DNA of 64,000 bases, taken from NCBI GenBank assembly GCA_024277435.1, contig JAJRVJ010000028.1, forward strand, positions 14,114 to 78,113, read 5' to 3'. The notes under the pieces were generated by a model, which ran no database searches, had not been told where the DNA came from, and worked only from the letters and a program-made list of their open reading frames with translations. The stretch comes from Patescibacteria group bacterium. Its GTDB lineage: Bacteria; Patescibacteriota; Patescibacteriia; UBA9570. Positions within the stretch are counted from its first letter, which is position 1. Each line of letters begins with the position of its first letter. Position numbers and translations under genes: made by a program. Of this stretch, positions 17,493 through 39,913 are shown piece by piece.

Positions 17493-18038
17493 TTGATGAC
17501 TATTTCTAGCAAGGAAATCTATACTGCAGCGCAACACATAAAGTCCGGTGGAATTGTAATTTATCCAACCGATACAGCATATGCTATTGGCTGTGCATTT
17601 GATAATATGCCAGCGATTCGTGCAATTATGAAGTTGAAGGGTCGTAAAGATGTAAAGTTTACAATTATTGCCTCATCATTACAGCAGGTTCAAAAGTATT
17701 TCTCTCTTAATGCCTAACAAAAAAAATTAGCCAAGCGACATTGGCCAGGCGCTCTCTCAATAGTAGTATCGTCAAAGTTTGCTGTGCGCGTGCCGAATTA
17801 TTATCCGGCTCGTAGTTTAGCCCGCCGAGCTGGTAAGCCACTCATTGCTACTAGTGTAAATATTTCAGGTCGAGCAGTACATTATAATTTGCGTAACCTC
17901 CATAAAAAATTTATCAGTAAAGATATTGCTATACTTAATGCCGGGATTCTTTCAAAAGATAAACCATCTACCGTTGTTGAATGCAAAGATAGTAAATTAA
18001 TAATTCACCGCCAAGGATCGGTAGATATATATGTATAA
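17493..18038 (+). pseudogene. tsaC: L-threonylcarbamoyladenylate synthase TsaC/YrdC interrupted by a single in-frame TAA (17715-17717)
   Basis: The two ORFs (17493-17717 and 17784-18038) are in the same frame. The N-terminal part has YPTDTAYAIGC and the C-terminal part has LAKRHWPGALS...GKPLIATSVNISG. The frame is continuous apart from the TAA, which sits next to an A8 run. Confidence 0.7.
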
Positions 18039-18906
18039 AGCACCAACTACACCGCAAGAAATTAAAGATACAACCAAATATTTCAAATTATCTGCTAACA
18101 AAGATATTGGCCAACATTTTTTGTTTGATCAAGATGTATTGCACGCAATCGTAGATGAGTATGCAGTATATAATAATAAACAGAGTACTGTATTAGAAGT
18201 GGGGCCTGGCTTAGGAGTATTAACCGAGAGATTAGTGCAGGTGGCTGATAAAGTAGTAAGTGTAGAGTTAGATAGGCGGCTGGAACCAGTATTGCATGCC
18301 TTGGAAACACAATATGATAATCTGGAAATCATTCGAAGTGATATTTTACGTACCCAACTAGGGGATTATGGTTTATCGAACGGTAATTTTACAGTTGTTG
18401 CTAACCTTCCATATCAAATAACCTCACATTTTATTCGCCAAATGCTTACGCAGGAGCCATATCCAGATAGATTAATACTACTTGTCCAAAAAGAAGTTGC
18501 GGAACGCATTGTGGCTGAGCCAGGTAAATTAAGTGTATTAGCTCTATCGGTTCAAGCATTTGCTGATCCAGAAATTATTGCAATGGTACCGCCAGAGGTA
18601 TTTTATCCGGCTCCAGCGATACAAAGTGCTATTTTAGCCATAAATAATGTTCGATCAAAGAAAGTATTTAAGGATAAACAAGAGGAAGATATGTTTTTTC
18701 GCATAGTTAAGGGTGGATTTGCTCAAAAGAGAAAGATGTTACGAAAGAATCTACAGAATATTCGTATTAATGAAAAAAGTCTTAGCGGAGACGATATAGA
18801 CATCATATATAATATGATTGGAATCAAAAAAACTGCTCGAGCCCAGGAAATTTCGCTAAAACAGTGGCTTTTGATGCTTGACAAAATTAAAACTTTCGTG
18901 ATATAA
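18031..18906 (+). CDS. rsmA: 16S rRNA (adenine1518/1519-N6)-dimethyltransferase
   Basis: QHFLFDQDVL, VLEVGPGLGVLTERL (SAM-binding) and VANLPYQITS motifs of KsgA/RsmA. Confidence 0.9.
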   Translation: MYKAPTTPQEIKDTTKYFKLSANKDIGQHFLFDQDVLHAIVDEYAVYNNKQSTVLEVGPGLGVLTERLVQVADKVVSVELDRRLEPVLHALETQYDNLEIIRSDILRTQLGDYGLSNGNFTVVANLPYQITSHFIRQMLTQEPYPDRLILLVQKEVAERIVAEPGKLSVLALSVQAFADPEIIAMVPPEVFYPAPAIQSAILAINNVRSKKVFKDKQEEDMFFRIVKGGFAQKRKMLRKNLQNIRINEKSLSGDDIDIIYNMIGIKKTARAQEISLKQWLLMLDKIKTFVI

Positions 18907-18913
18907 TATTTTT

Positions 18914-19777
18914 GTGGCTAATCACTTTTTCGCCAAGTGGCCAAAACAAACTAAGCGATTTTTTTGGTTATACGCCGGTTTTGGGGTGTTTACTATAATA
19001 TCTGGCCTATATATGTTTAATAACCGTATTAACGGACTAGCACCATATCTTGTTAGCTTGGATACTACTCCATTTGCAGCTAGCGAATCTCAAGACCAAC
19101 TAGAAGAGTTGGCTGCTATGCGTTCTACAGATACCGATGGTGATGGCCTTGATGATTTTAGTGAAGAATACATATATTACACTAGTAAATACCTTGTAGA
19201 TACTGATTCCGACGGGGTATCCGATGCGGATGAATTATCCGTTAATAACGACCCTAATTGTCCTACTGGTCAAGTTTGTGGGAGTACAGTTGATGCTGAA
19301 GAGGCAAGAGAGATCGCCGCAGCTGCAGATGAGGCAGCTAGTGATATTTTAAATGAGGATATTGAAAGTTTATCAGCAGACGAGGTAAAAGAGCGTTTGG
19401 CTCGATTAGGTATCCCAGAATCAGCCTTTGCTAGCGTAGCAGACGAGGATTTAGTTGAGGTATATAAGAGTGTTGTTTCTGAAACAAATAGCACCTCAGC
19501 TAGTGAAGATATTGATTATAATCCAAATACAGATGTACGAGTTGATCCAACTGGTAATCCAATAGATGATTTAGCGCCACAGGGTAGTGAAGGATTATCT
19601 GGGACAGCTGATTTTGAGGATTTCCAAAATTTACAAGCCGATGATATCAGAACCTTACTATTGCAAAGTGGTGTTTCTCAAGAAGAGTTGAATGTAATTA
19701 GTGATTCTGATTTGGAAATATTATATCAAGACGTATTAGATCAACAATTAGATGCCACCGCGCAAGGGGGTCTCTAA
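18914..19777 (+). CDS. Hypothetical membrane-anchored acidic protein with thrombospondin type-3-like Ca-binding repeats
   Basis: N-terminal transmembrane segment, DTDGDGLDDFSEEY and DTDSDGVSDADE motifs. GTG start. Confidence 0.5.
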   Translation: MANHFFAKWPKQTKRFFWLYAGFGVFTIISGLYMFNNRINGLAPYLVSLDTTPFAASESQDQLEELAAMRSTDTDGDGLDDFSEEYIYYTSKYLVDTDSDGVSDADELSVNNDPNCPTGQVCGSTVDAEEAREIAAAADEAASDILNEDIESLSADEVKERLARLGIPESAFASVADEDLVEVYKSVVSETNSTSASEDIDYNPNTDVRVDPTGNPIDDLAPQGSEGLSGTADFEDFQNLQADDIRTLLLQSGVSQEELNVISDSDLEILYQDVLDQQLDATAQGGL

Positions 19778-19786
19778 AAATATATT

Positions 19787-22700
19787 ATGAGCAAGGGTAA
19801 GCGTTTCCAACAATTCATTACTAGCCTCACAGTTGGGGTATTAATGCTAACAATGTTGGTACGTCCAATGCCGGCTCGTGCTCAGGGTATTCCGGTAATC
19901 GATGTTACACAGATTTCCCAGGAAACTGCTCAAACAGTAGGTCAGAAGATTCTAAAAGCCCTAGGAAATGCAGCGTTAGGCGCTATTCGTGGATCATTAA
20001 ATGCCTTTCTTCAAAAATTAGCCTACGATACAGCCACATGGATTGCTACTGGTGACCATGGTCAGGATAGTTTATTTGTTACCGAAGATGATGAGACATT
20101 TTGGTCGAATGCTGCTGATGTTGCTGCAGGCGGTGCTATTGAACAAGCTGCTACAGCAGCTGGATTAAATGCAGCTGGTATTTGTAATCCGGGTGGTGAT
20201 TTTGGTATTAATCTTACCCTTGGTTTAGATGTTACAGCACAGCAACCATATAAGCCGGCTTGTACGTTAAGTGAATTAAGTGGTAATTGGGAAGAAGCAT
20301 TTTCCGATCCAAATTTTGGTGACCTAGTGAATATGCAATGGGATTCCACTGCAAATCCACTAGGTGCATCATTAGAAGTGGAAAACTTACAAATTGTTGC
20401 TAGCGCTGAAGCGGTAGATGCAGCAAAATCAGAATCAGCGAGAGAATTTAAACAGGTTACAGAAACTGTTTCTGGCTACGTTAAAACTCCTAGCGCTACT
20501 GTAAAACAACAATTAGCAACCACGCAGTTAGCGCAAAATGAAGCCTGGCAGTTATTGGGCAATCCAGTTGTAGATGCTGTTGCGGTATTCTCTACCACAC
20601 TTACCTCAAAGCTTATGGAGCGCTTAATGACTGGTTTAGCGGATGCCAAAGCCGGTAACGGATTAAGCGCTATTATTTCTGGTGAAGGAACCGGCGCTGC
20701 TTCCGGTAGAGCTGCTGCGCAGGCACGGTTTGCAGAATTGCGCCAGCCAGTATTTGCATCTAGCGGCACCTTTGATATCATCGCTGAATTATCATCTTGT
20801 CCAGATGACGTTGGTTTACGTACTGTAAATAATTGTTCTATTGGTCCAACAACGGCCATTGCTATCCAGGAGGGTTGGACGACTCAAGAATTGGTTGATT
20901 ATTTTGAAGAGGTTGGAAATGATTTTCGTTTTGTCGATGAAACGCTTACCGCGCAAGAGGTAGCGCAAGACGCTGGTATTACCTATCAGGGTATTTTGGT
21001 ATTAAAAAAATACCGTATTATTCCTGTAGGTTGGGATTTAGCCGCCCAATATATTAATGATGATTCCAATCAAGAAAGCAAAACATTATCAGAATTAGTA
21101 GATGAATTTGATAATTGTGATTCGGGTGATGACTATTCCCCATACTGTAAATTAGTTGATCCGTATTGGGTATTAAAAGCGCATGCAAATTTTTGCCAGC
21201 GGGAAGCTCCTGGCCCAGACTTTGCATCAAAAGATAAAATTGATGATGATGTAAATGCTGCCACTCCAGAAGCTATTATTCTTAATCGTTTAAATTACTG
21301 TGCTGATAACCGCGGCTGCATTCAAGAGGAAGAAGAGGGCGTGTGTACTGCTTATGGATATTGTACAGAAGAAGAACGCACCTATCGTTTTGCTGGTGAT
21401 ACGTGCGATGAAGAATATGCAAGTTGTGAAACATTCACCAATGAAGATGATGAAGATATCTCCTACTTGAAGAGTAGTATTAATTACAATGATTGTGCAA
21501 CGGATCCTGGGTGCCAATGGTATTGCTTAAGCACTAATGAATCTGGTTTATATGATTGTGCTAGCCCAACCGAAACCTTCATTACCTGTAACGAAGACTA
21601 TGCAGATAGTGATGCAGTATATAGTTATGATGAGCAAGTATCATGCGCTTGTGAGGTGCAAGATACGTGTATTGTTCGGGCTGGTTCTGATTTAGGTGAC
21701 GATAGTGGTAGTTATGAATATATCGAGGAAGGTGATTCATCAGCATCCGATACGGTGGCTGATGGCATTTATGATTTTTACCAATGTCGAGTATATCCAG
21801 ATGCATCACAGCCAGATGCATATGCTATATGTGACTTAGGCGAAGCTTGTGGAGCTGGTAATCCAAATTATGATGATTCCTTGGGGTATTGTACGTGTAC
21901 AATTGATTACTCTTGTGATGCTGATAGCGGTGATAGCTCTTGTGAAGCAACTGTCACAGGTGATAATGATACCGATGGAGATGGAGTGGATGAAACACTA
22001 ACTATTGGTTGTGATTTAGATGATGAAGATGCTGATTCTTCAGCTGATTCTTGTACATCTGAATACTCAACATACAGTGATGCGCCAGTATGTTCACCAA
22101 GTGGATCTATTAATTGTGGTGACACGTGTATTGTTTCTGACGGCTCAAGTAGCTGTACGAATAGTTTAGGTAATACCTGTGAAGATGGTGGGGACTTAGA
22201 TAGCGATGGTTCCGTTAATGGGGAATGCACATTGGCAGATACCTGTGATATTAGCGATGGTCAGTTTAGTTGTTCTACTGACAACGGTAATTTATGTGTC
22301 ATTGGAACACAAGAAGAAGATCCAGCAGAGGAAAATGACACTATCTATTTTGATGCTAATGTTCAAGAATGTGACAGTGGTGATGCGGGATGTAGTAATT
22401 ATATTCGCACTCTAAGCGATACAAATATTCTACCAAACTCACAATTTAATTATTATGATGGTGATCTTGATGATTCGTCAACGGATTTTGTTGGCTTTTG
22501 CACACATGACGGTAGTGGTTGTTACACTGATGCAGATTGTTATGAAGATGTGAATGGTGATGGCCTAGCTGATACTTCAGACCCAGCAGAGCAGGTTGGT
22601 GAATGTAAGGGTTGGATTCAATCTGACGTTGCCGCGCAAGTAGTTACACAATCTACACTTGGATTAACTCCAATCTACGGAGAAAATGCCTTACAAGTTA

Positions 22701-25700
22701 TTGCTGATGGCGATGCCTCAACAACTGGTAACGTGTATGCAGAAGTTGATACCGGATATACATTAGCCGACCGTACGTTTAGTCTGGCGTATCGCGCATA
22801 TTCAGGAGAAGCTACATTATATGATTGTGATTACAGCTTTTCACTTGGTGGTATCGAAAGTGATGGTACAGAGTATGTATTAGATACCATTACATCTATT
22901 GAAGTTGACGACACAACAACTCTAGATGCGTATGAAAGTGATTGGAATGAGTACTACGGAACATTTACGTTTCCAGAAGATGGTGATTCAACCTATAGTA
23001 GCACTGGCTCTCCAGGAACAACGATTAAGCTGTCTATTCAAAATCATGATGATTGTAGTATTAATATTGATGCCGTTCAATTAGTTGAAGCTGAAGAATA
23101 CGATACGAGCTTCTCAGCTTACAATGATAACAATAGTATATACTTGAACTCTTCAAATAGTTGTGAACCGGAAGATGTTGGTTGTGAATTATATGTTGAA
23201 GATGGTCGCGACGAAGAAGATGGTATTCCGGGTAAGATTACTAATCCAGAATCAGATGTCTGTGTTGATGCTTCGGGTAATTATAACTACGACAATCCAT
23301 CATGTAATCAATGTGATGGTAACCCAGCTGAAGATCAGGATGATAATTATTACGCTGGTTGTGATTTTTACCAAGAAGTAAGCTTAGATCGTACTATTCC
23401 AATTACTACCGATTATGGATCATTATTAAGTACAGAAGAGCGCGACGGTATTATGCAGCGCTACGGTGGACGATGTTCATCCGATCCTTCCGAGAGTTGT
23501 TTCGAAGCCTCAGATTGTTCTACGAGTGGTGATGTATGTGAATTGCAAACATCAATCGTGCCATCTTCTGGCCAACAATGTCCGGCATCAGTAGTTGGCT
23601 GTGAAGAATACACAAATTTAGAAGCAGCTGCAGAAGGTGGTGAATCACTATCGTACTACAGTGAGTTGCAACAATGTGTGAAAGAAAATGACGATGACAC
23701 AGATACCTTCTTTACATTTGAAGGTAGTGATGATGGTGGTATTCAAATTACAGATCATTTCTTAAAGGTTGTTCACGATACAGGAACTGCTAATGATGGT
23801 GCTCCATGTACTACCCTAGATTGGGAAAACGAAAGTTACAATGCTGATTGTCAGGACTTTGTAACTGTTACACCAAATGATTGTGGCCCTAGTGGTGATG
23901 ATGTATATGGATCCGACCTAGATTGTCGCCAATATATTAATGATGAAGGTGATATATTCTATCGTTATGAATCGGAAGTAATTATAGCTACCGATGAATG
24001 TACAACACTGCGTAATACGCTTGATACACGAGTATACTTCGCAGTGCCAGGTGATAGCGCTAGTTGTTCAGCTTCGTACAATGGATGTCGTGAATATAAA
24101 GGTACCGATTCTGGATCGGCGCTAGATGTTGTTGATGAAGAGTTCGATAGTAATTCTACAGAAGAGTGGGTTGGTGCCGATACCACAAGTAATGAAGAGG
24201 TATTACAAGGTGGATATTCCTTAGCTCTACATACAGCAACTAGTTCAGCTTCTAGTGACTTTTCTGGCTATACTGAATATGAAGAAATTACCTACGATTT
24301 ATGGCAAGAGAATGATGGTGAAACCGTTGGTACACTTACTCCTGGTCAATCGTATGTACTATCTTTCTGGGCTAAGGTAACTGATGCAGATGCACAATTA
24401 TTAGCATCTATTGATCCACTAATGTCATCAGTAAATACATATTATTATTTTACTAACGATGGATCAGATGATACTCGAGCAGATTCGGCTATTGATCTTG
24501 ATCCAAACAGTGAAGGGGACTGGCAATTCTATCAACTTGGCCCTATCATTCTTGATGCCAGTGCGGAAGAAGATGATCAGAGCGTTACCTTCAACTTACA
24601 ATTCATGGATACAACTGGTTCAGCTGAAGGGTATATTGATAATATTTTACTTACGGAATCAGATAGTCAGTATCTTATTCAAGATTCCTACAATTATTGT
24701 TTAAATTTTGAGGGTTGTCGAGAGTATAAAGATCGTAATGATAATACACATTACCTAAAATCCTTTGATCGTTTATGTGAAGAGGGTGCCGTTGGTTGTG
24801 AGGCACTTATTAATACATATAATTCCTCCAATCCATTTACCGAAGGCTATAATTTTGATAATGAATATGATGAAGATGATGTGGTTGTACAATACGATCA
24901 GCCAATTACATTAGTATACGACGAGGAAAATGAATGCTCGTCTGAGGTAAGGGCTTGTAAAGCGGTTGGATTGCCAGAGGTAGATGAACGCACCGGATAT
25001 GTTGAGGAGTTTACTACTACATATTTACGTGACCTACCAGATGATTATACATCAACATTATGTGAACAGCCGCAATTAAGCTGCCAAGCCTATGAATCTA
25101 CGTATGATGGAACAGTATATTTCAAAGACCCTGGTGATAAGGTGTGTACGTTAGAGGAGTATACTACGGATGAAGGAACCTTGTTGGGATGGTTTAAGAA
25201 AGATAGTGATGCTACAGAGCCAGATTGTCCTGTACAGTACGATTATGCAGATAAGTCGTATCCATTAGGTGGGTTATGTAACAGTAATAGTGTGAGCTTT
25301 GATGAGGATGGTTCGGTAAATGATAGCTTGATTGGGGAATTATGTAATTCGGATAGTGATTGTTATCCAAGTGGCTGGTCTAGTAGTGATCCGCGACCAC
25401 GCTGTATTTCAAATCCAGAAGATGATGTTGATTTATTTGATGGCAGTGTTCATCAATACGCCATTCGTGCAAATGATGAATTATCACTAGATACTGATGA
25501 TTTTGGTTGGGTTGGTACATGTCCATCAAGTCAATCGGGTTGTACAGAATATATTGATCCGTATAGTCCAAATATCGAAGAAATTACTCGTAACTGGAGC
25601 TTTGAAAATGATGTGCGTAATCAACAGGATACGTATTATGCTAATGAAGAAACCGCTGATGGATTCCCAGACTACTGGTACGTAAATAGCAATGCTGGTG

Positions 25701-27517
25701 AGGAAGGTACTGGTGAATATGAAGATGCTGATGAGGATGGTTTTGCTGATGATGAAATCATGGTAAATACCACATTGGATCTAGATAATGATGGTACAGC
25801 TGATTTCCCAGCTGAGTGTCATTCATATTTACCAACCGAAGATACATATCCCGATGCATATGTGTATGCAACCTATGGTGCATCTACGAACACAGCTGCG
25901 ATGACTAACTCTAATGATTATTCAGATGTTGATGTAACTCCGGTGGATGGAGATTCTGCTCTATTTATTGAAGAATGTGCATTAGAGAATAATAAGCTCT
26001 TTTCATACGAGCGCGATAAATTATATACATTGTCTGCCTTTGTAAAATTACCTCTTATTCCTGAAGATGATCGTGAAACAATTTTACCAAACTATGAATT
26101 CAGCATTGGCTTACGTTACTATGATGAAGACTTTAATGAGGTAGAAGTAGATGATAGTGATCAAATGTTTATTGTGGCCGACCATGCCACTATCGAGCCT
26201 ACTTCATACGCTGTAGATGATTCTGATAATCAAAGTGAATGGTATAAATGGCAAGGGAATATCGGTATAGGATCAACCGTAGAATTTCCAGATCCAGATA
26301 CCAATGGTAATTGTAATGGTGGAGTAGGTCCATTTATAGATTTCAGTAGAACAAGTTGTGAAAATGGAGGTGGAGAATGGTATGAAATAAAATATGCATC
26401 TCCATTTGTGGCTAATCATTATAGTAGTCCAATCTGGTTTGATGCAGTATCGTTTAAGGAAAACGACAAGTATTATTATCTTGACTACACCGTTGATGGA
26501 ACTTCCGAGCATGATTCTGAATTTGATTTTACTACTTGTGAAGGCACTGATGGGGAAGGTGAAATTACATCCGATGGTGGTTGCGTAGGATTCCGTGACA
26601 CCACATATGATTCACAAATTATCTCGCAAGATAGCATTGAATGTGCAACCTGTTTATTAACGCCAAATTCAGATAGTTGCCGTAATGTGGTAGACGCCTG
26701 TGATACGAATGCAGTTATTAAAGTAAAACGAGATCGCGTATGTAGTGAGTGGCTGGCTTGTGAAACTGCTGCTGTAGTTACGGATGAAGAGGGTAATGAA
26801 GCAAGCCAATGCTTCTCAATTGGTCGTTGCGTTGGCCTTGATGAAGATGGAAATTGTATCGATTGGAAATTAAAACCAAGTACCGACGAGTTAACCACTC
26901 TTACCGATCTTCATTACACAACTGCTGGTGGTGATAATGATGAACTAAGTGCCATCCGTAACTTAACCGGATATAGTAAGGTAGGTATGACATGGCTTGA
27001 TACTCAGGTATGTGATGGTGGTGAATCAAGCGGTGAATCTTGTGAATACGATACCGATTGTGGACCAATTTATGGTAGTTGTTCTGGTGATGAATGTGTG
27101 AGTGGAGATAATCTGGGAGATATTGGTTGTCAGGCTGATGCGGATGATAATGGTGTGGCGGAATCTTGTGGTGAAACGGGTACGTACTATGAATGTAGAG
27201 CTCCAATTGAAGTGCAGGGTTATTTTCCATATGGCTGGATGGTAGAAATTGGTGGTGATGGCGCTGAGGCGGAGAATGACTTTATCGAGCACCGTTCTTT
27301 CGAGAATCTGTATTGTGCTGGTGAAGATGCCGATCCTACACAGGCTTGTATAGTGAATGCGAGTGGCTTCGGTGAAACTAGTCCTAGCCCTTCGGCGGGA
27401 AATTGCTTCCGTACCGAATTTGAAGATCGATTAACCAATGACGATACCGATGTTGGAACTACTGATAATCCATATACATATGTAGAGGGAACTGATCTTG
27501 ATGATTATCAAGGTTAA
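19787..27517 (+). CDS. Giant secreted cysteine-rich acidic protein, part 1 (2576 codons)
   Basis: Signal peptide MSKGKRFQQFITSLTVGVLMLTMLVRPMPARAQG. Very long open frame rich in Cys, Asp, Gly, Thr and Ser. It ends at a TAA that is in frame with the downstream ORF. Confidence 0.8.
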   Translation: MSKGKRFQQFITSLTVGVLMLTMLVRPMPARAQGIPVIDVTQISQETAQTVGQKILKALGNAALGAIRGSLNAFLQKLAYDTATWIATGDHGQDSLFVTEDDETFWSNAADVAAGGAIEQAATAAGLNAAGICNPGGDFGINLTLGLDVTAQQPYKPACTLSELSGNWEEAFSDPNFGDLVNMQWDSTANPLGASLEVENLQIVASAEAVDAAKSESAREFKQVTETVSGYVKTPSATVKQQLATTQLAQNEAWQLLGNPVVDAVAVFSTTLTSKLMERLMTGLADAKAGNGLSAIISGEGTGAASGRAAAQARFAELRQPVFASSGTFDIIAELSSCPDDVGLRTVNNCSIGPTTAIAIQEGWTTQELVDYFEEVGNDFRFVDETLTAQEVAQDAGITYQGILVLKKYRIIPVGWDLAAQYINDDSNQESKTLSELVDEFDNCDSGDDYSPYCKLVDPYWVLKAHANFCQREAPGPDFASKDKIDDDVNAATPEAIILNRLNYCADNRGCIQEEEEGVCTAYGYCTEEERTYRFAGDTCDEEYASCETFTNEDDEDISYLKSSINYNDCATDPGCQWYCLSTNESGLYDCASPTETFITCNEDYADSDAVYSYDEQVSCACEVQDTCIVRAGSDLGDDSGSYEYIEEGDSSASDTVADGIYDFYQCRVYPDASQPDAYAICDLGEACGAGNPNYDDSLGYCTCTIDYSCDADSGDSSCEATVTGDNDTDGDGVDETLTIGCDLDDEDADSSADSCTSEYSTYSDAPVCSPSGSINCGDTCIVSDGSSSCTNSLGNTCEDGGDLDSDGSVNGECTLADTCDISDGQFSCSTDNGNLCVIGTQEEDPAEENDTIYFDANVQECDSGDAGCSNYIRTLSDTNILPNSQFNYYDGDLDDSSTDFVGFCTHDGSGCYTDADCYEDVNGDGLADTSDPAEQVGECKGWIQSDVAAQVVTQSTLGLTPIYGENALQVIADGDASTTGNVYAEVDTGYTLADRTFSLAYRAYSGEATLYDCDYSFSLGGIESDGTEYVLDTITSIEVDDTTTLDAYESDWNEYYGTFTFPEDGDSTYSSTGSPGTTIKLSIQNHDDCSINIDAVQLVEAEEYDTSFSAYNDNNSIYLNSSNSCEPEDVGCELYVEDGRDEEDGIPGKITNPESDVCVDASGNYNYDNPSCNQCDGNPAEDQDDNYYAGCDFYQEVSLDRTIPITTDYGSLLSTEERDGIMQRYGGRCSSDPSESCFEASDCSTSGDVCELQTSIVPSSGQQCPASVVGCEEYTNLEAAAEGGESLSYYSELQQCVKENDDDTDTFFTFEGSDDGGIQITDHFLKVVHDTGTANDGAPCTTLDWENESYNADCQDFVTVTPNDCGPSGDDVYGSDLDCRQYINDEGDIFYRYESEVIIATDECTTLRNTLDTRVYFAVPGDSASCSASYNGCREYKGTDSGSALDVVDEEFDSNSTEEWVGADTTSNEEVLQGGYSLALHTATSSASSDFSGYTEYEEITYDLWQENDGETVGTLTPGQSYVLSFWAKVTDADAQLLASIDPLMSSVNTYYYFTNDGSDDTRADSAIDLDPNSEGDWQFYQLGPIILDASAEEDDQSVTFNLQFMDTTGSAEGYIDNILLTESDSQYLIQDSYNYCLNFEGCREYKDRNDNTHYLKSFDRLCEEGAVGCEALINTYNSSNPFTEGYNFDNEYDEDDVVVQYDQPITLVYDEENECSSEVRACKAVGLPEVDERTGYVEEFTTTYLRDLPDDYTSTLCEQPQLSCQAYESTYDGTVYFKDPGDKVCTLEEYTTDEGTLLGWFKKDSDATEPDCPVQYDYADKSYPLGGLCNSNSVSFDEDGSVNDSLIGELCNSDSDCYPSGWSSSDPRPRCISNPEDDVDLFDGSVHQYAIRANDELSLDTDDFGWVGTCPSSQSGCTEYIDPYSPNIEEITRNWSFENDVRNQQDTYYANEETADGFPDYWYVNSNAGEEGTGEYEDADEDGFADDEIMVNTTLDLDNDGTADFPAECHSYLPTEDTYPDAYVYATYGASTNTAAMTNSNDYSDVDVTPVDGDSALFIEECALENNKLFSYERDKLYTLSAFVKLPLIPEDDRETILPNYEFSIGLRYYDEDFNEVEVDDSDQMFIVADHATIEPTSYAVDDSDNQSEWYKWQGNIGIGSTVEFPDPDTNGNCNGGVGPFIDFSRTSCENGGGEWYEIKYASPFVANHYSSPIWFDAVSFKENDKYYYLDYTVDGTSEHDSEFDFTTCEGTDGEGEITSDGGCVGFRDTTYDSQIISQDSIECATCLLTPNSDSCRNVVDACDTNAVIKVKRDRVCSEWLACETAAVVTDEEGNEASQCFSIGRCVGLDEDGNCIDWKLKPSTDELTTLTDLHYTTAGGDNDELSAIRNLTGYSKVGMTWLDTQVCDGGESSGESCEYDTDCGPIYGSCSGDECVSGDNLGDIGCQADADDNGVAESCGETGTYYECRAPIEVQGYFPYGWMVEIGGDGAEAENDFIEHRSFENLYCAGEDADPTQACIVNASGFGETSPSPSAGNCFRTEFEDRLTNDDTDVGTTDNPYTYVEGTDLDDYQG

Positions 27518-27880
27518 TATTGGGGTGGAGCATCAGCTGTATATGAAGAGCCAAGTTATTATTGTCCAAATACTCCAGAATTTGGTTTATGGCCATTTGG
27601 TGGATTTGAAGATGGTACGGATACCGAATATACTCAACATGGTTGGCAACCAATTGGTGATACTTCTGTATTTGTAACACAATACGATTATAATTTTAAA
27701 ACTGTTCTTAATGAATTTTCAGGGCGTGATACCAGTGAATTCACTTGTGATGAAGATTGCCCTGAAATTGACGTAAACAATGTATTACAAGTTGAGCCAG
27801 TTGTTACTACAGGTGGTGATACAGGTGGCGTACAATATGATTTCTACGACACCTTTACGGATCCATCTACTGAATTAGCC

Positions 27881-30800
27881 TTGAGTTTTGATGCTCGTTT
27901 TGATGGTAACTTTGAAGAGATAGGTGAAAGTGATGACCCAAGTACAGTGTCGGCGTGCTTAAAACACAATAATATGGTATTTATTGGTGATTGTGATTCT
28001 AGCTCTCAGTGTACGAACGATTCTAGTATTTCTTGTACGGATGATCTAGATGGTGATGGCCGTGATTTTGAATGTGATGTTGCAGTTTCCCGCCAAGACT
28101 GTTGGTCGGAAGGGCGAAGTTCGGCGGACATTGTATTCATTATGGATACTTCCAGTTCTACTTCTACGTACTTAGAAAATACACGTACATCTATTCCTAA
28201 TCTAGTAGCAGAGTTAGAGCGTCGTGAAATAGCGGCGAAATATGCGGTGATTGATATGGATAGTGATGGCAGTTCTGCAATGACAACATTAGAATTACAA
28301 GTGACATCAGACGTTGAGGATATTTCAAATACCTTTGATAGTGATAGCTCTGTATGTTCTGGCGTAGATTTTTATAATACTGGCGTAAGTTGGCGTAATG
28401 ATGACCCATGTCTAAACTCTTCTGGTGCTAGCGTTGATCCGTATGCTGCTATTGCAGACGTACTTGAAAATAATATTCAGGCATATAACTCGAATAGTGA
28501 GGGCGGTACGTTATCATCCGCTGATCTTGCTATGCGCGGAAGTGCATTACCAATTATTATTCTTGTTACAGATACAGGTGATGAGTATAGCAGCAACATT
28601 TATGATGAAGCATACGTATTAGATTTATTTTACGAAACGGAAGCAATAATTATTGCAGTAACTCCAGATACGTTATATAGTTCGTATGGCGATGCTGCTT
28701 CTTACTATAGTGGAATTACAAGTGTATCTGGCGGTGAAGTAATTACAGCAATTAACGATGCAGATTGGACAGCCGATGGATCGGTAATTGATAGCCTTGT
28801 AACTATTATTGAAGAAGAGGTGGATCAGTTCCAGTTTGATAATATCATGCAGAACTATGCACTTGGTCCTATTACACTAGATAATCGATCACTTGAGGAT
28901 GGTGAATTAGGGGCAGCGGAAGGTAAGTTAATTACTTCAGAATTAGAACTTCGTGCATCTGATAATTCTGTATTTCAAATCGATAACGTATCATTAAAAC
29001 CTGTATTATTAGCTTCTCAAGAAGTGGAAGTAGATCCTATCGGTCGTACCTGTCGTGCATGGCCAGCTAGTGATTCATTGCAGTGTGAATATACCGATAC
29101 AAGTGGAGCACAGTATCAAGGTTGGCGTGGATATTGTTTAGAGTCTGATCCATTCAACCGTCGTCGTTGTATTACGTGGTGGCCACTGGATTACTTATCT
29201 GGTGAAGCATCCATTACTAAACGTGAATCAGCTGGATACGATGGTCGCACTGAATTACAGTATTGTTTAGTAGCTAAAGGATATGAAGATCCTGGGTTTT
29301 GTGATCAAGCCGAGTGGGATGATAGCGGTGATACCATCACTTATGGCGATGGCCAGATATGTACTGACGATTCTCAATGTTCATCTGGTACATGCGTGAA
29401 GAGTGTGCGTCACACCGTGGATGATCCAACAAGTTCATCTTCTAAGCCAAACTTTTCTACGCCACTTACTACAAATGCCCCTGAAGATGGCTATACATAT
29501 CGCATGCGTTGGCAAACTAACGATCCAAACGCCATGGAGCATGGAACATTGTATGAGCAATATTTAGCCAACGGTTTTGATCTTGATGATTTGGTAGAGT
29601 CCTTCTTCTTAAGTCCATTCACACTGCTAGATAGTAGCGATGATATTAAAGTAGATGCGGCTACTGTAGTGCGTTTGCCAGCTAGTGAAGTATTACGTAA
29701 TGTACATGTGAGTGAAATTGAATCGATTATTTTCAATACCGGTTCCGCAGGATTTGGCGATGAATCCGTCAGTAACGGACCGGAATGGACATATTGGGGG
29801 CAATTAGGTAAAACAGGGGATACCGGCCTTACTGGTGCTACAGCTGACGTTACAGAAACGTATGTAGATGGTGACGGTAATGCAATTAATCCGGAAGATA
29901 ATGATAACGAATGTGGTACCAATGGGTTTGATTGTAATAAATATGGTAATTGGGTAATTTCTGATTTTGCAGAAGGTAGTATTAATCAAAATGATGATGG
30001 GTCTCAGAAGCCATGGGAAGATTGTTATGCGTATCGTGCAAATGATGGATTGGATATTGATACAATGGGAATTGGTTGTAGAGTATGGGGTGCTTATGAT
30101 AGTAATTATGAACTAGATTACTATGATGATGCAGAAAATTTTGATTACTATGATACTAGTGGAAATTCAACTGAGATGGATATTGTATATACCTGGGCTT
30201 GGAGTAATTTTGATTATGGCTTAGGTACGGCTGATGATGCTGATGCAACTGATTATAATTGTAATACAGGTAGCTCAACAAATGAAGATAAGTATCCATA
30301 CCGCTGGGAGAATTTGGAGGACAGAGAAGATCTATGGTTTGATTCGCCATGTATTGGCGATGCTGTAAAACAGGTGATGGGAGTGGAAGGTTCTGGTAGC
30401 CAGAACCCATGGAAGCGTTTAGGTAATGCTGATAATCTTAATAACTGTATTGAATCATACGAAGGTGAATTTAGTTCTGAGGAGGTCAAGATATGTGTAG
30501 AGGAAGATCCTGGCGATAACTGGTCGGCCTGGACAAGCTGGACAGAACGTTTAGCTATTGAAGATGAAGACTGGGGAGCGTTTGAACAGCATAGTTCTGG
30601 CGGTAATAATATTTTCTCGCTATGGATTGATGTAAATAGCGATGGATATATTTCTGCCGTATATTATCTTATCTATACTGGAGCTATGGGTACGTACGAT
30701 TTTGCTACTTCAGTGGATGCTGCAAACTTCAACTTAACCTTCGATAACGACATGAGCCTTGATTTTCAATTACGTGAAAGTTGTGCGCTAGTAGTAGAGG

Positions 30801-32011
30801 CAGTGGATTCATCTGGTGATAACGTGGCTTGGGCAGAACGAGCTAGTACAGGTAGTGATTATAATATGGATCATGCCGCAGATGATAGTGGTTACGAGTA
30901 TTCCACAGAATATGATACGTATGGTGCAATTGCTCCAATTCCATCTACCGATAGCATATTCTTATATGATACGTTGTTAGAAGCACCAGATAATATCTAT
31001 AAGTGGGGTAGCTATAGTTATCAACCATTTGTATTTGTGGATTATGCTGATACTTTCACCGCTGGTAGACCACTATCGTGTATTGGTGAGTGTGAGCAAA
31101 AATGGTGTGTAAGTGATTTTGGTGAAGGTTCCTTTTATGATCAAGGTGATGGAATCTGTTCAACGAGTGATGATTGTAGCGATGGCGGAGTATGTGTAGG
31201 TGTAGGCCGTGAGGAGATTAGCGGTGAAGGCTTGAGTAGTGTAAGTAGTTATGAGGACCAAATAGTGCAAACCGCTGTTGCAGGCCGCGATCGCTTAAAG
31301 CATGTGTTTGCGGATGTAGTGGGTAGTTATTATCGACCAGCGTATCGGGTAGATTCAGCTTCTCGCATGTATAATACTGATACTATCTATGGAGCAGATG
31401 GTTACTGGTTGAATGATCCAACAGATTCTTCCTCGGGAAATATCTTTGATGACATGGTAGTATGTGATGGCAATGAGCGTGATGATAACGATAAAGGGCT
31501 TGATGCAGAATATTGTGGTGTGCGCCCAGTAATCGATGATCCTGAAGATCCTATTGCCTTCGATGATCAAACTGCTTATACGGAAAATAAATATACCATT
31601 ACTAATGGTAAAACCGTTACGCTTAGCTTTACTTCAGATGTAGATCCAGAACAAAAGCCATTGAAATCAATCTATATCGATTGGGGAGATGGTAAAACAA
31701 CTAGCGATCCATGGGATGCTGATACCACAACGCATTATTATACACATTCATATCAATGTGGCCCAGAGTACCAGCAGTATACTGAAGAATATTCAGCAGC
31801 TGATGGTGGCACCTGTGTATATAAGCCAAAGATTACCGTTGTAGATAACTGGTTATGGTGCTCTGGTAATATCACCGATGCAACAGCATTGCCTACTAGT
31901 GGTAATCAGTATCGGTCGGCGGAGAATGTGGGTAATGCACTAGAAAGCTGTAATAGTTGGGATACACCTAATTTTGATATCGAAGTAGTATCTGGTAGTG
32001 GTTCAAGCTAA
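27881..32011 (+). CDS. Giant secreted protein, part 2 (vWA-domain-containing), probably continuous with part 1
   Basis: The frame is open from 27518, directly after the TAA of part 1, with no ATG before the TTG at 27881. vWA MIDAS motif DIVFIMDTSSS at about 28130-28160 and IILVTDTGDEY. Same amino acid composition as part 1. Confidence 0.75.
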   Translation: MSFDARFDGNFEEIGESDDPSTVSACLKHNNMVFIGDCDSSSQCTNDSSISCTDDLDGDGRDFECDVAVSRQDCWSEGRSSADIVFIMDTSSSTSTYLENTRTSIPNLVAELERREIAAKYAVIDMDSDGSSAMTTLELQVTSDVEDISNTFDSDSSVCSGVDFYNTGVSWRNDDPCLNSSGASVDPYAAIADVLENNIQAYNSNSEGGTLSSADLAMRGSALPIIILVTDTGDEYSSNIYDEAYVLDLFYETEAIIIAVTPDTLYSSYGDAASYYSGITSVSGGEVITAINDADWTADGSVIDSLVTIIEEEVDQFQFDNIMQNYALGPITLDNRSLEDGELGAAEGKLITSELELRASDNSVFQIDNVSLKPVLLASQEVEVDPIGRTCRAWPASDSLQCEYTDTSGAQYQGWRGYCLESDPFNRRRCITWWPLDYLSGEASITKRESAGYDGRTELQYCLVAKGYEDPGFCDQAEWDDSGDTITYGDGQICTDDSQCSSGTCVKSVRHTVDDPTSSSSKPNFSTPLTTNAPEDGYTYRMRWQTNDPNAMEHGTLYEQYLANGFDLDDLVESFFLSPFTLLDSSDDIKVDAATVVRLPASEVLRNVHVSEIESIIFNTGSAGFGDESVSNGPEWTYWGQLGKTGDTGLTGATADVTETYVDGDGNAINPEDNDNECGTNGFDCNKYGNWVISDFAEGSINQNDDGSQKPWEDCYAYRANDGLDIDTMGIGCRVWGAYDSNYELDYYDDAENFDYYDTSGNSTEMDIVYTWAWSNFDYGLGTADDADATDYNCNTGSSTNEDKYPYRWENLEDREDLWFDSPCIGDAVKQVMGVEGSGSQNPWKRLGNADNLNNCIESYEGEFSSEEVKICVEEDPGDNWSAWTSWTERLAIEDEDWGAFEQHSSGGNNIFSLWIDVNSDGYISAVYYLIYTGAMGTYDFATSVDAANFNLTFDNDMSLDFQLRESCALVVEAVDSSGDNVAWAERASTGSDYNMDHAADDSGYEYSTEYDTYGAIAPIPSTDSIFLYDTLLEAPDNIYKWGSYSYQPFVFVDYADTFTAGRPLSCIGECEQKWCVSDFGEGSFYDQGDGICSTSDDCSDGGVCVGVGREEISGEGLSSVSSYEDQIVQTAVAGRDRLKHVFADVVGSYYRPAYRVDSASRMYNTDTIYGADGYWLNDPTDSSSGNIFDDMVVCDGNERDDNDKGLDAEYCGVRPVIDDPEDPIAFDDQTAYTENKYTITNGKTVTLSFTSDVDPEQKPLKSIYIDWGDGKTTSDPWDADTTTHYYTHSYQCGPEYQQYTEEYSAADGGTCVYKPKITVVDNWLWCSGNITDATALPTSGNQYRSAENVGNALESCNSWDTPNFDIEVVSGSGSS

Positions 32012-32020
32012 TATATAAGT

Positions 32021-34825: not shown

Positions 34826-34833
34826 TAGTATAT

Positions 34834-36666: not shown

Positions 36667-36677
36667 CTATATAGCAC

Positions 36678-37241
36678 ATGCAGCAATTTGTTGTACCACA
36701 ATTTATTGAGGTGGAGTCCAAGGTAATTGGTCCAATTTCGGTACGGCAATTTATCATTCTTCTTGTTACCGCGGGTATCATTTATATATGGTTTGAATTA
36801 TTTAGCTTAGTTGTTTTTGCTATACTAGGAGTGGTGACGTTAGCAATTGGTGGTGTATTTGCTTTTGCAAAGGTAAATAGTCAGTCATTCCATGTATTTC
36901 TATTGAGTTTTATTCAAACAATGAAGCGACCAAAGCTTTCTGTTTGGCGAAGAGAGCATCCGATAAAGGCAATTGAAAAGAAGGGTCGTAAAGATAAGAA
37001 GGATAAGAAGGACGATACAGAATTTACACCAAAGCCTGATGTATCGCAATCACATCTAGCAGAGCTGGCACTTATCATGGATACTGAAGGACAGTACTCT
37101 CCACAAGACATAGAGCAATTACGCAAGGAGCAGCACGCAGAGGTACCAGCTCCAGTGCAATTACCAAAGGATGACCTTGTAGATCTTAATGCTGAGCAAC
37201 CAAGCCCTCAAAATTCTAATGAACGAGAACAGCAACAATAA
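36678..37241 (+). CDS. PrgI/VirB3-like small two-transmembrane protein
   Basis: VPQFIEVESKVIGPISVRQFIILLVTAGIIYIWF followed by a second transmembrane segment matches the PrgI (PF12666)/VirB3-like pattern. It sits immediately upstream of VirB4. Confidence 0.5.
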   Translation: MQQFVVPQFIEVESKVIGPISVRQFIILLVTAGIIYIWFELFSLVVFAILGVVTLAIGGVFAFAKVNSQSFHVFLLSFIQTMKRPKLSVWRREHPIKAIEKKGRKDKKDKKDDTEFTPKPDVSQSHLAELALIMDTEGQYSPQDIEQLRKEQHAEVPAPVQLPKDDLVDLNAEQPSPQNSNEREQQQ

Positions 37242-37258
37242 TTGTTGTATAACTGTAT

Positions 37259-38011
37259 ATGGCTAAAAAGAAAAAGCAAACAACTTCAAAAAAGGCAAAG
37301 GCCGAGGAGCTTAAAGCTCGGCAAGCTGGTGGCGGAATGAAAAAGAAGCGTAAGTCTGCACCAAATTCTCAGAGTAATATGCCTATTGCTGAGGTTAAGC
37401 AAGATACGGTTCTTTTAAAGGATGGTACGTTGCGATCTGTATTAGAAGTATCTTCAATTAACTTTGCGTTGAAGAGTGCAGATGAACAACAAGCTATTAT
37501 TCAAGGATATATTCAGTTTTTGAATTCTATTGATTTTGAACTACAAATTGTCATTCAGTCCCGCAAGCTTGATATTTCAAAATATCTTGAACAGCTCGAT
37601 AAATTAGCTAAGGAGCAAACGAACGAACTATTAAAAGTGCAAACTGTTGAATATCGTCAATATATCGATGAGTTAGTAACCTTATCGGAGATTATGGAGA
37701 AACGTTTTTTTGTAGTAGTTCCGTATTCACCATTTTCTAAAAAACGTAAAAGTTTTTTTACTCGAGCGCAAGAAGTATTATTTCCCAGCCGTGTAATTAA
37801 ATTGGCCGATAATAAATTTGCAAAATATAAGAAAGAACTCGATCGTAGAGTGGGAATTACCGCTGGGGGATTATCTTCAATTGGTTTAAAAATTGATATG
37901 TTAAGCACACAACGTTTAATTGAGTTATACTATCAAATATACAACCCAACTCGTGGAACTAGTAAAAAATTACCAGACCTAAATGATTTGCGAGTTGAGC
38001 AAGCAGGATAA
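37259..38011 (+). CDS. VirB4/TrbE/PrgJ N-terminal domain (CagE_TrbE_VirB-like)
   Basis: VLLKDGTLRSVLEVSSINFALKSADEQQAIIQGYIQFLNSIDFELQIVIQSR matches the VirB4 N-terminal motif pattern. It ends at TAA 38009-38011, in the same frame as the next ORF. Confidence 0.55.
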   Translation: MAKKKKQTTSKKAKAEELKARQAGGGMKKKRKSAPNSQSNMPIAEVKQDTVLLKDGTLRSVLEVSSINFALKSADEQQAIIQGYIQFLNSIDFELQIVIQSRKLDISKYLEQLDKLAKEQTNELLKVQTVEYRQYIDELVTLSEIMEKRFFVVVPYSPFSKKRKSFFTRAQEVLFPSRVIKLADNKFAKYKKELDRRVGITAGGLSSIGLKIDMLSTQRLIELYYQIYNPTRGTSKKLPDLNDLRVEQAG

Positions 38012-38014
38012 TAT

Positions 38015-39913
38015 ATGATTGATTTAAAGCGTGCAGCCGCGCAACAAGGCCAAACTACTAACGTAAGCCCTTTGAAGCCATCTTCTAAGGAGGACATAGA
38101 GGACCGCAAAAAAAAGCGTGCCAAAGAACAGCATGAATCACGTGAGTTATTAGAAGCTGCAAAATCATATGAAGAAGGGGTGCGCTCCATATTAGATTTG
38201 GTTGCGCCAGCAGCATTTAGAGCTAAACCACGGTTAGTGGATGTGGGTGGTAGATTTGTTTCAACGATGTTTGTGGTTACATATCCTCGTTATATTGCTG
38301 TGGGATGGTTTGCTCCAATTGTTACGTTAAACATCTCATTGGATGTGGCAATGTATTTTTATCCGGTAAAGCCTGCGATTATTCTGAAGCAACTAAAGAA
38401 AAAAGTAGGTTCACTAGAAGCCGAGCTTATTTCAGATGCAGAAAAAGGAGCGCCACGCGATCCGGTAAAAGAAACGGCTTTAAAAGATATTGAGGGATTG
38501 CGTGATAGCTTAACTCAGGGAACCGAAAAGTTTTTTCAATTCGCTTTATACATCAGCGCATACGCCGACACAGAAAAAGAACTTGAGGACCTTATGGAAA
38601 AATTAGATTCGGAATTTGGCTCTAAATTAGTTATTGCTAAACGCGTATTCTATCAGGCTGAACAAGGCTTTAATTCAACAATGCCTTTAGCGAATGATGA
38701 GTTGCAGGTGTATTTCAACATGAATTCATCACCCTGTGCTTCTTCATTCCCATTTATTTCAGCTGAGCTTACTAGTGATAATGGTATTTTATATGGTGTG
38801 AATCGGCATAATAATAGCCTGATTTTATTTGATCGCTTTGCTCTTCAGAATGCTAACTCTGTAGTATTTGCTACATCTGGTGCTGGTAAGAGTTATACGG
38901 TGAAATTAGAAGTATTACGTAGTTTAATGATGGGTACCGATGTAATTATTATTGATCCAGAAAATGAGTATAAGTTTTTATCTGATGCTGTAGGTGGAAC
39001 ATTTGTGAATGTATCGTTAAATTCCGAAGCAAAGATTAATCCGTTTGATTTACCTCGTCCGGTTGGCGGGGCTGATCGACCGGCCGATATTATTCGTTCA
39101 GCAGTTATTACTATCAAAGGTTTACTGCGCATCATGCTTGGTAAAATTACTCCAGGGGAAGATTCAATTATCGATCGAGCGCTTATTGAAACGTATGCAA
39201 AAAAAGATATTACACCAGACGCCGATCTCACAACTATAGAGCCACCAATAATGAAAGACTTCCAAGAAATTTTAGAAGGCTTTGATGGCAGTCATGATTT
39301 AGTATTACGCTTAAAGAAATACACTGAAGGTACATTCGCAGGTATGTTTGAAAGCCCTACAAATATTGATATGACGAATCAGTTAGTAGTATTTTCCGTA
39401 CGTGATTTAGAAGATGAATTACGCCCGATTGGTGTGTATACGGTAGTAAATTATATTTGGAATGTTGTACGATCGCAATTAAAGCGCCGTATTCTTATTA
39501 TTGATGAAGCCTGGTGGTTAATGCAAAATGAGGATTCGGCCAAGTTTATTTTTGCGCTGGTTAAACGATGTCGTAAATATTATCTTGGTGTAACTACTAT
39601 CACTCAGGATGTGAACGATTTCTTACTCTCTCCATATGGTAGAGCAATTGTAACTAACTCTCAATTGCAAATTCTACTAAAACAGTCCTCAGCCGCTATT
39701 GATAACATTCAAAAAACATTCTTACTTACAGAAGGTGAAAAATTCTTACTGCTAGAGGGTAATGTGGGCGAGGGGATATTCTTTGCTGGCTCACGTCACG
39801 CGGCTATTAAAGTGGTAGCATCGTATACAGAAGATCAAATTGTTACGTCCGATCCAAAGCAATTATTAGAAATCGATGATGCGAAAAAAGAATTCGCAAA
39901 CCAAAATCAATAG
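38015..39913 (+). CDS. VirB4-family T4SS ATPase (C-terminal ATPase domain)
   Basis: Walker A FATSGAGKSYTV, Walker B ILIIDEAWWLM. Typical VirB4/TraE C-terminal organisation. Confidence 0.85.
   Translation: MIDLKRAAAQQGQTTNVSPLKPSSKEDIEDRKKKRAKEQHESRELLEAAKSYEEGVRSILDLVAPAAFRAKPRLVDVGGRFVSTMFVVTYPRYIAVGWFAPIVTLNISLDVAMYFYPVKPAIILKQLKKKVGSLEAELISDAEKGAPRDPVKETALKDIEGLRDSLTQGTEKFFQFALYISAYADTEKELEDLMEKLDSEFGSKLVIAKRVFYQAEQGFNSTMPLANDELQVYFNMNSSPCASSFPFISAELTSDNGILYGVNRHNNSLILFDRFALQNANSVVFATSGAGKSYTVKLEVLRSLMMGTDVIIIDPENEYKFLSDAVGGTFVNVSLNSEAKINPFDLPRPVGGADRPADIIRSAVITIKGLLRIMLGKITPGEDSIIDRALIETYAKKDITPDADLTTIEPPIMKDFQEILEGFDGSHDLVLRLKKYTEGTFAGMFESPTNIDMTNQLVVFSVRDLEDELRPIGVYTVVNYIWNVVRSQLKRRILIIDEAWWLMQNEDSAKFIFALVKRCRKYYLGVTTITQDVNDFLLSPYGRAIVTNSQLQILLKQSSAAIDNIQKTFLLTEGEKFLLLEGNVGEGIFFAGSRHAAIKVVASYTEDQIVTSDPKQLLEIDDAKKEFANQNQ

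Follow-up and report, generated by a model that had tools for sequence, protein, structure and literature searches.

Introduction

Hopping over a stop codon occurs in an elaborate form in T4 gene 60 and as low-level hops in E. coli. Both programmed readthrough and T4 gene 60 hopping place an in-frame stop between two protein parts, with matched flanking codons. The meaning of a stop codon can also change throughout a genome: in Gracilibacteria and Absconditabacteria, UGA is reported to encode Gly (code 25), and in several phyla Trp (PMC8629427, PMC13462651). The CPR cases offer a precedent for altered stop meaning from the broad bacterial radiation to which the DNA described here also belongs. 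Young nonsense lesions and in-frame stops in bacterial genes are already known as well: Belinky et al. 2021 describe such stops as widespread and mostly persisting no longer than population polymorphisms do, and argue that some remain under purifying selection (PMC7918605).

Here we analyze three TAA codons in the window, by which we mean the whole 64,000-nt stretch of DNA under study, from an ultra-small bacterium of the Patescibacteria (CPR). A sequence-only reading had located them at 17715-17717, 27515-27517 and 38009-38011, each between co-framed ORFs, and both the codons and the co-framing were found as described. It had placed the three stops inside tsaC, a giant gene and VirB4, and had offered sequence error, pseudogenisation and context-dependent readthrough without choosing among them. 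Our analysis shows that two genes are truly cut by a premature TAA and that the third case is a normal gene boundary. The two real stops resemble those of Belinky et al. 2021 (PMC7918605) in being a single nonsense codon in an otherwise intact, conserved ORF; that paper presents a conservation and dN/dS argument for non-pseudogene status, whereas here no second genome carries the stops. Unlike the CPR reassignments, which concern UGA, are genome-wide and involve loss of the codon as a terminator, our locus terminates its genes mainly with TAA and has just two interior TAAs, both of them unconserved. It also shares the interposed stop and the matched flanking codons with programmed readthrough and T4 gene 60 hopping, but has neither their conservation nor their stimulatory RNA structure and leaky context. 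The evidence favors a pair of ordinary point lesions and a single gene boundary that was misread.

Two genes are cut by a premature TAA

The gene for L-threonylcarbamoyladenylate synthase (tsaC, YrdC domain; 17496..18038, + strand; 180 codons), identified by Pfam PF01300, homologues and synteny, has one premature in-frame TAA at 17715..17717 (+), in the context GCC TAA CAA with an A8 run after it. The interruption is genuine: the PF01300 profile (Sua5_yciO_yrdC) is matched on both sides, over positions 2-59 before the stop and 66-178 after it. The 25 aligned TsaC homologues, 45-62% identical to the tsaC of the window, are all intact and align with it residue for residue, with the stop in one highly variable column; at this position the codons of four related loci are ATA, CAC, TGT and TGT. 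All 35 columns that are invariant in this alignment are kept across both sides of the stop. Among the 120 matches listed, TsaC homologues are 159-248 aa long, and the gene order leuS-tsaC-ksgA is common to the window and its relatives. The 106 codons downstream of the stop are still open and conserved, and the next in-frame start, GTG at 17784, lies 23 codons on, past the conserved WPG motif. A local double indel in place of a substitution was ruled out, the alignment being gap-free around the stop.

The giant gene (19787..32011, +; 4,074 codons), which has no Pfam domain, is followed by a Gram-positive-type type IV secretion cluster; its single premature in-frame TAA is at 27515..27517 (+; GGT TAA TAT TGG). 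A homologue search with 396 aa spanning this stop gave no match at E <= 1e-5, and the continuity of the gene was shown via syntenic loci reached from the TsaC and VirB4 homologues. In three relatives with the same synteny the gene is one ORF, of 4,044, 4,058 and 4,077 aa. Homology to these ORFs runs on past both sides of 27515-27517, with identities of about 60% upstream and 47-48% downstream, which confirms that this gene too is truly interrupted. The stop lies within a short linker, lineage-specific and rich in indels, that separates conserved blocks. Downstream of it 1,497 codons are still open and conserved, and the next in-frame start, TTG at 27881, is 121 codons away, past a conserved YYCPN...GWQP block. 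Since the giant gene makes up 20% of the coding bases in the window, it is a large mutational target.

At both sites, then, an in-frame stop interrupts what in the orthologues is an unbroken domain or ORF. Both stops are real in the deposited assembly and appear in the protein products of the 188,709-bp NCBI contig, which include 73-aa and 84-aa fragments of tsaC and a 2,576-aa fragment of the giant gene. Neither is conserved in any relative. Adaptive gene fission, whereby each stop would cleanly split its gene into two separately translated functional proteins, is very unlikely: although such an arrangement is true of the TraC-like/VirB4-like pair described below, which is conserved as two genes, tsaC and the giant gene have no start near the stop, the next ones entail loss of the WPG and YYCPN...GWQP blocks, and the split is absent from all relatives for either gene. 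Local repeats or misassembly were ruled out at both sites, each 30-mer there being unique in the window.

The third TAA is the end of a TraC-like gene

The TAA at 38009-38011 had been read as splitting VirB4 between its N-terminal and ATPase domains. The stop and the co-framing are present, but there is no interruption. A conserved TraC-like gene (37259..38011, +; 250 aa) ends normally at this TAA; it is 79% identical to a relative's 239-aa PF26593 gene and is co-framed by happenstance with a complete VirB4-like ATPase gene of 632 aa (38015..39913, +) starting at ATG 38015. The best 120 ATPase homologues are all 611-693 aa long and cover just 64-71% of the joined query. The ATPase is matched by Pfam P-loop_TraG and DUF87 and by the VirB4 C-terminal domain structure PDB 4AG5 (E = 5e-47), and its start, MIDL(K/Q)(R/K)AAAQQG, is kept in a relative. 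The 250-aa TraC-like protein has a weak Pfam TraC_F_IV match, and a search of PDB sequences with it gave no match at E <= 1.

In four related loci (L005, L009, L010 and L011) the PF26593 TraC-like gene is separate, encodes 228-243 aa, and lies in another frame than the ATPase, which it either overlaps by 4 nt (ATGA) or precedes with a spacer of 4 nt. An interrupted VirB4 gene is therefore rejected: the orthologues do not encode both parts as one ORF. The window has the gene order of the Gram-positive-type T4SS module of Patescibacteria, PrgI, TraC-like (PF26593) and VirB4-like ATPase, and its protein sizes of 187, 250 and 632 aa match those of relatives, with identities of 79% and about 90%; the sole peculiarity is that the pair is co-framed here with a 3-nt spacer. 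For annotation, the TraC-like and VirB4-like genes should be kept as two genes.

TAA is the ordinary terminator of the window

TAA terminates 33 of the 44 genes in the window, and the protein lengths of the genes other than the two interrupted ones match those of relatives. Only two interior TAAs occur in about 20,000 codons. Genome-wide reassignment of TAA is rejected on these grounds, as the sequence-only reading had already concluded. That the genome uses the standard code, with TAA as main terminator, forms part of the explanation that we favor below and probably holds together with it.

The same reading had counted the TAA-TAT context, seen at two of the three sites, as a possible signal. 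This depended on the third site, an ordinary terminator; the two real sites differ from each other (TAA-C in tsaC and TAA-T in the giant gene). Far from being special, TAA-TAT occurs more often than any other context at the true TAA terminators of the window (6 of 33), just as a T following TAA is their commonest next base (19/33). Nor do co-framed junctions exceed the one-third expected by chance: within the window they make up 11 of the 35 same-strand neighbor pairs (31%). Five ordinary gene boundaries are also single-stop co-framed junctions because the spacers are tiny. Where a genome is compact and its spacers measure 3-10 nt, such junctions are common and give no evidence of interruption.

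The identity of the stop is equally unremarkable. From the codon usage of the window, TAA is expected to account for about 45-46% of nonsense mutations, with a computed TAA:TAG:TGA ratio of about 45:28:26. Two TAA out of two nonsense lesions would thus arise with p of about 0.2.

Possible decoding of the two stops

Readthrough at these stops, if it took place, would provide one of the rare examples of bacterial UAA recoding, and would do so in a lineage with relatives in which UGA has already taken on another meaning. Such decoding, by a near-cognate tRNA or by a suppressor tRNA encoded elsewhere, would yield both proteins at a reduced level. Both stops lie at highly variable positions where any residue may be tolerable, the ORFs downstream are intact, and UAA-C, as found in tsaC, counts as comparatively weak among UAA contexts in E. 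coli. Against this, UAA, which both release factors recognize, is the least leaky of the stops and here ends 33 of the 44 genes. The stops are unconserved, with sense residues in the 25 TsaC homologues and uninterrupted genes in the three giant-gene orthologues, and the contexts of the two sites differ. The giant-gene stop is followed by T, the normal terminator context of the window, and +4U is reported as the strongest termination context, lowering readthrough in bacteria (PMC5289835). The sequences downstream of the two real stops fold no better than shuffles (z = 0.17 and 0.78), and an Rfam search of the window found no element except tRNAs. These tRNAs are three, Arg-GCG, Ser-GCU and Ser-UGA, to which related loci add just Arg-GCG, so the proposed search for a suppressor tRNA with a UUA anticodon was negative in the window and in related loci. 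We therefore regard readthrough as unlikely, even with the purifying selection that Belinky et al. argue for some bacterial in-frame stops (PMC7918605), and the earlier suggestion of context-dependent readthrough finds no support; sequence error and pseudogenisation, the other two options, are viable for tsaC and the giant gene.

A short peptidyl-tRNA hop over the stop is the least probable of the explanations considered. The codon before each real stop recurs in frame, GCC at +6 codons and GGT at +4, against baseline recurrences of 7% for GCC and 17% for GGT, and such matched take-off and landing codons are absent at the third site. However, this is a post hoc observation, and stimulatory structure is lacking. 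The second GCC of tsaC encodes the nearly invariant Ala of a conserved QKKLA, so protein conservation accounts for its recurrence, and hopping to it would delete conserved residues. The giant-gene site is Gly-rich, with GGT making up 46% of Gly codons. Were UAA at both interior sites usefully decoded by any of these routes (near-cognate readthrough, a suppressor tRNA elsewhere, or a short GCC/GCC or GGT/GGT hop), tsaC and the giant protein would stay functional, amounting to UAA tolerance or recoding in bacteria; taken together, we consider this improbable.

Probable nonsense substitutions and possible sequence errors

We favor, at a probability of roughly 0.55, two independent and very young nonsense substitutions with ordinary termination, the third site being a gene boundary. 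According to this proposal, tsaC and the giant gene, which are unrelated, would each have acquired one independent single-codon nonsense substitution, and release factors would end translation at both stops as usual. Both genes would for that reason be fresh null or strongly hypomorphic alleles, either young pseudogenes or else segregating variants that an assembly sampled only once had caught. The substitutions would have to be very recent, because the downstream 106 and 1,497 codons are open and conserved and the invariant TsaC residues are kept. The stops are thus probably true mutations rather than consensus errors, and both would terminate translation.

A search downstream of the two real stops for secondary decay (further stops, frameshifts or lost conserved residues) found none, so the lesions are very young, erroneous or tolerated. 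The lack of decay speaks against young nonsense lesions to the extent that it fits error or functional readthrough equally well. When GTDB species genomes and JGI metagenomes were scanned for close TsaC relatives, the nearest loci were only 48% identical, and in cluster look-ups every tested window protein present in the collection was a singleton cluster. These scans and look-ups thus yielded no sister strain to show the alternative allele.

The main rival to nonsense substitution is an error of consensus, base calling or polishing, in which case the organism would have sense codons at the two sites (e.g. CAA, TAT, AAA or GAA) and the genes would be intact. The perfectly intact and conserved downstream parts suit this explanation. 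So does the nature of one of the genes: tsaC is essential in many bacteria, and a fixed tsaC null allele would therefore be surprising. The genome was also sampled only once, leaving the alleles without corroboration. On the other side, a model of random substitution errors yields the two stops only at some 43 errors in every 60 kb, a rate of about 7e-4 per base, but the remaining gene lengths agree with those of relatives and other long homopolymers are in frame (G7 in pnp, A8 in tsaC and VirB4). VirB4 shows no excess of private changes, with one private deviation at otherwise invariant columns against 0-4 in its peers, a weak test of low power. A systematic, methylation-type error might be marked by a motif common to both real sites, and a search for one found none. 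We consider error possible but less probable than nonsense substitution. Until the reads have been checked, annotations should mark both tsaC and the giant gene as disrupted.

A frameshifted integrase

A third gene of the window is broken in another way. In a tyrosine recombinase (50671..51520, - strand), a G7 run, which reads as C7 on the + strand (51019-51025), contains a +1 frameshift that divides the Pfam Phage_integrase match over two ORFs. A one-base change in a G7 homopolymer is a classic long-read or pyrosequencing error type, and this lesion accordingly counts in favor of sequence error, which would give the organism G6 and an intact integrase; reading the run as G6 restores a 16-residue protein stretch. 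The deposited contig has the 169-aa integrase fragment among its products. With a third gene broken by a homopolymer frameshift, the lesions in the window are not specific to TAA. Pseudogene lesion spectra are usually dominated by indels, and the two substitution-type lesions against one of indel type seen here are unlike that usual spectrum, an observation that runs against young nonsense lesions.

Two genuine interruptions and one gene boundary

Reading the sequence alone had suggested that three genes are interrupted by an in-frame TAA. Our analysis retains this for tsaC and for a giant gene, whereas the third stop, before a VirB4-like ATPase, lies at a gene boundary. The TAA at 17715-17717 is present and in frame with tsaC, and both YrdC halves are there: upstream of the stop the sequence matches positions 2-59 of the Pfam PF01300 profile, and downstream of it positions 66-178. 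When the two flanking ORFs were joined through the TAA as one query, 227 TsaC homologues were found; the 120 matches listed are 159-248 aa long, with a top identity of 63%. The alignment with 25 homologues is gap-free around the stop and keeps 35/35 invariant columns, on both sides. The stop column is among the most variable (C, N, H, I, V, Y, A, R, T, M or L in relatives), and since four relatives have ATA, CAC, TGT and TGT there, the precursor codon is not inferable. The next in-frame start, GTG at 17784, is 3' of the conserved WPG motif, making a separately translated C-terminal half implausible.

The interruption of the giant gene is equally borne out. Exactly one TAA (27515-27517) lies between ORFs of 2,576 and 1,497 codons, and three syntenic relatives carry a single uninterrupted ORF (4,044 aa in GCA_040960315.1; 4,077 aa in SRR22387842; 4,058 aa in SRR22387796). 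Conserved blocks flank the stop, CFRTEFE(D/Q)RLTN before it and YYCPN.PEF..WPF.G and GWQP after it, and in the alignment the stop itself falls in a linker that is short, rich in indels and lineage-specific. The first in-frame start after it comes 121 codons later, past both of the latter blocks. The giant gene (~4,074 codons, Cys/Asp/Gly-rich, without a Pfam domain), the 934-aa gene and the 610-aa gene (together 19787-36666) lie directly 5' of the type IV secretion cluster, keep their synteny in all relatives and have strongly positive GC skew (0.18-0.27). Two more large domain-less ORFs (748 and 876 aa, 59075-63942) show the same positive skew. Such gene products might be secretion substrates or surface adhesins.

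The TAA at 38009-38011 does not split VirB4, as had been proposed, but is an ordinary gene boundary. The joined 884-aa query found 3,654 homologues, of which the best 120 all measure 611-693 aa and align to no more than 64-71% of the query, namely the 632-aa downstream ORF alone. Five related Patescibacteria loci (L005, L009, L010, L011 and L012) have the order PrgI-like, separate 228-243-aa PF26593 "TraC-like" and 632-633-aa ATPase; in the first four, the TraC-like and ATPase frames differ, and the genes either overlap by 4 nt (ATGA) or lie 4 nt apart. Between the window's 250-aa TraC-like protein and its 239-aa counterpart in L005, identity is 79%. On the ATPase side, the start MIDL...AAAQQG is conserved, and the protein has matches to TrwK and to 4AG5, a structure of the VirB4 C-terminal domain. 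The suggested likeness of the upstream protein to the N-terminal region of VirB4/TraC holds to the extent of a weak TraC_F_IV match and the PF26593 name, but the stop is not inside a gene. The division into two genes is old and conserved. In the conserved three-gene module of Patescibacteria (36678-39913 in the window, and the five loci), with PrgI-like, 228-250-aa TraC-like and 632-aa VirB4-like genes that usually overlap by 4 nt (ATGA), the N-terminal-like part of VirB4/TraC seems to form its own gene throughout this clade.

Between the genes of the secretion cluster (32009-38020), spacers of 3-17 nt show TAA TAT ATA or TAG TAT ATA again and again instead of a purine-rich Shine-Dalgarno sequence, a hint of tight translational coupling or of initiation without SD in this organism. 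In L011 (GCA_002790455.1, Kerfeldbacteria), a 435-codon open frame (6904-8209) 3' of the pilin-like gene has no gene in the NCBI entry, while its JGI copy, L012, has a call; this is probably an annotation gap.

The TAA pattern is not above chance

Co-framing does not exceed the one-third expectation: 11 of 35 same-strand neighbour pairs of true genes in the window (31%) share a frame. Spacers are often as short as 3-10 nt, so that five ordinary boundaries form single-stop co-framed junctions too (leuS|tsaC, 287-aa|giant, giant|934-aa, TraC-like|VirB4-like and Clp-type ATPase|219-aa); in relatives such junctions occur at gene boundaries only. From window codon usage, 45-46% of nonsense point mutations are expected to be TAA, so that two out of two has p ~0.2. 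The TAA-TAT context noted as shared by two of the three sites is simply normal terminator context: of 33 true TAA terminators, 19 are followed by T, more than by any other base, and TAT leads among the next codons (6/33). The two real sites themselves differ (TAA-C and TAA-T). The three-site pattern is thus not above chance.

Recoding is not supported

TAA closes 33 of 44 genes (TAG 7, TGA 4; 36/7/5 for TAA/TAG/TGA with fragments included), in line with the earlier view that it is a normal terminator and that wholesale reassignment is excluded. We know of no bacterial stop reassignment involving UAA; the bacterial cases listed by a literature search concern UGA. The proposal of context-dependent readthrough found no support in the comparison. 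No relative has the stop of tsaC or of the giant gene, their contexts differ, RNA structure 3' of the stops is no better than in shuffled sequence (z = 0.17, 0.78, 0.91), and ARAGORN found no UUA-anticodon tRNA in the window (Arg-GCG, Ser-GCU and Ser-UGA) or in related loci, where Arg-GCG is the only addition. An Rfam scan of the window gave three tRNAs and nothing else. The sites fail those defining features of a recoding site that were tested, namely conservation of the stop, its context, RNA structure and, in the accessible sequence, a suppressor tRNA. A +4U reportedly lowers readthrough in bacteria (PMC5289835). The 30-mers around both stops are unique within the window.

The pre-stop codon recurs in frame a short way downstream, GCC at +6 in tsaC and GGT at +4 in the giant gene, against baselines of 7% and 17%. 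Peptidyl-tRNA hopping, which needs such a recurrence, was considered and rejected: the second tsaC GCC encodes the nearly invariant Ala of conserved QKKLA, which a hop would delete. We regard the recurrence as coincidence. Functional UAA decoding at the two interior stops is highly improbable, and functional decoding of any kind through the stops is very unlikely. Bacterial genes commonly carry in-frame stops, most of which do not last long (PMC7918605), and those in tsaC and the giant gene belong with such ordinary nonsense lesions.

Young mutations or consensus errors

A third lesion affects a minus-strand tyrosine recombinase (Phage_integrase, 50671-51520), adjoining two tRNA-Ser genes and one tRNA-Arg gene. 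A G7 run (C7 on the plus strand, 51019-51025) has one G too many and shifts the frame by +1, leaving two ORFs; a G6 reading restores the canonical GKGKKDR motif. The explanation is either decay of the integrase of an integrated element or a miscounted homopolymer. Three of ~45 genes in the window thus carry lesions, which are confined neither to TAA nor to co-framed junctions.

We propose that the two stops are real, very young nonsense alleles, with a probability of roughly 0.55. One deposited NCBI contig (188,709 bp) encodes the fragments (TsaC, 73 aa and 84 aa; giant, 2,576 aa; integrase, 169 aa), each forming a singleton cluster, and searches of the protein collection, GTDB species genomes and JGI metagenomes yielded no conspecific sequence. 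A consensus error in the deposited assembly, a less likely but still sizeable possibility, would fit the fully intact downstream parts of both genes, the involvement of the normally essential tsaC and a third lesion arising as a homopolymer miscount. Random substitution errors, however, make stops in only 4.7% of single-base changes, so two stops imply ~43 errors per 60 kb, while the lengths of all other genes agree with relatives and other long homopolymers are in frame. VirB4 has 1 private change at otherwise invariant columns where 119 homologues have 0-4, although this is a weak test.

Setting of the genes

The window has ~40% G+C and 94% coding density, and its proteins best match those of metagenome-assembled genomes from Patescibacteria (CPR), Kerfeldbacteria and Buchananbacteria among them. 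Its gene order, common to several related contigs, runs rpsO, pnp, gmk and, further on, leuS, tsaC, ksgA; then the 287-aa, giant, 934-aa and 610-aa genes; then PrgI-like, TraC-like, VirB4-like, two T4SS-pilin-like and thioredoxin-like genes and, further on, recG. The first 2 kb have 45.5% G+C against ~40% elsewhere, with a G+C-richer stretch at ~330-1080 where both strands carry long ORFs in more than one frame. It includes a G8 run (995-1002), matches nothing in Rfam and might represent a small foreign insert or a minus-strand membrane-protein gene (741-1073).
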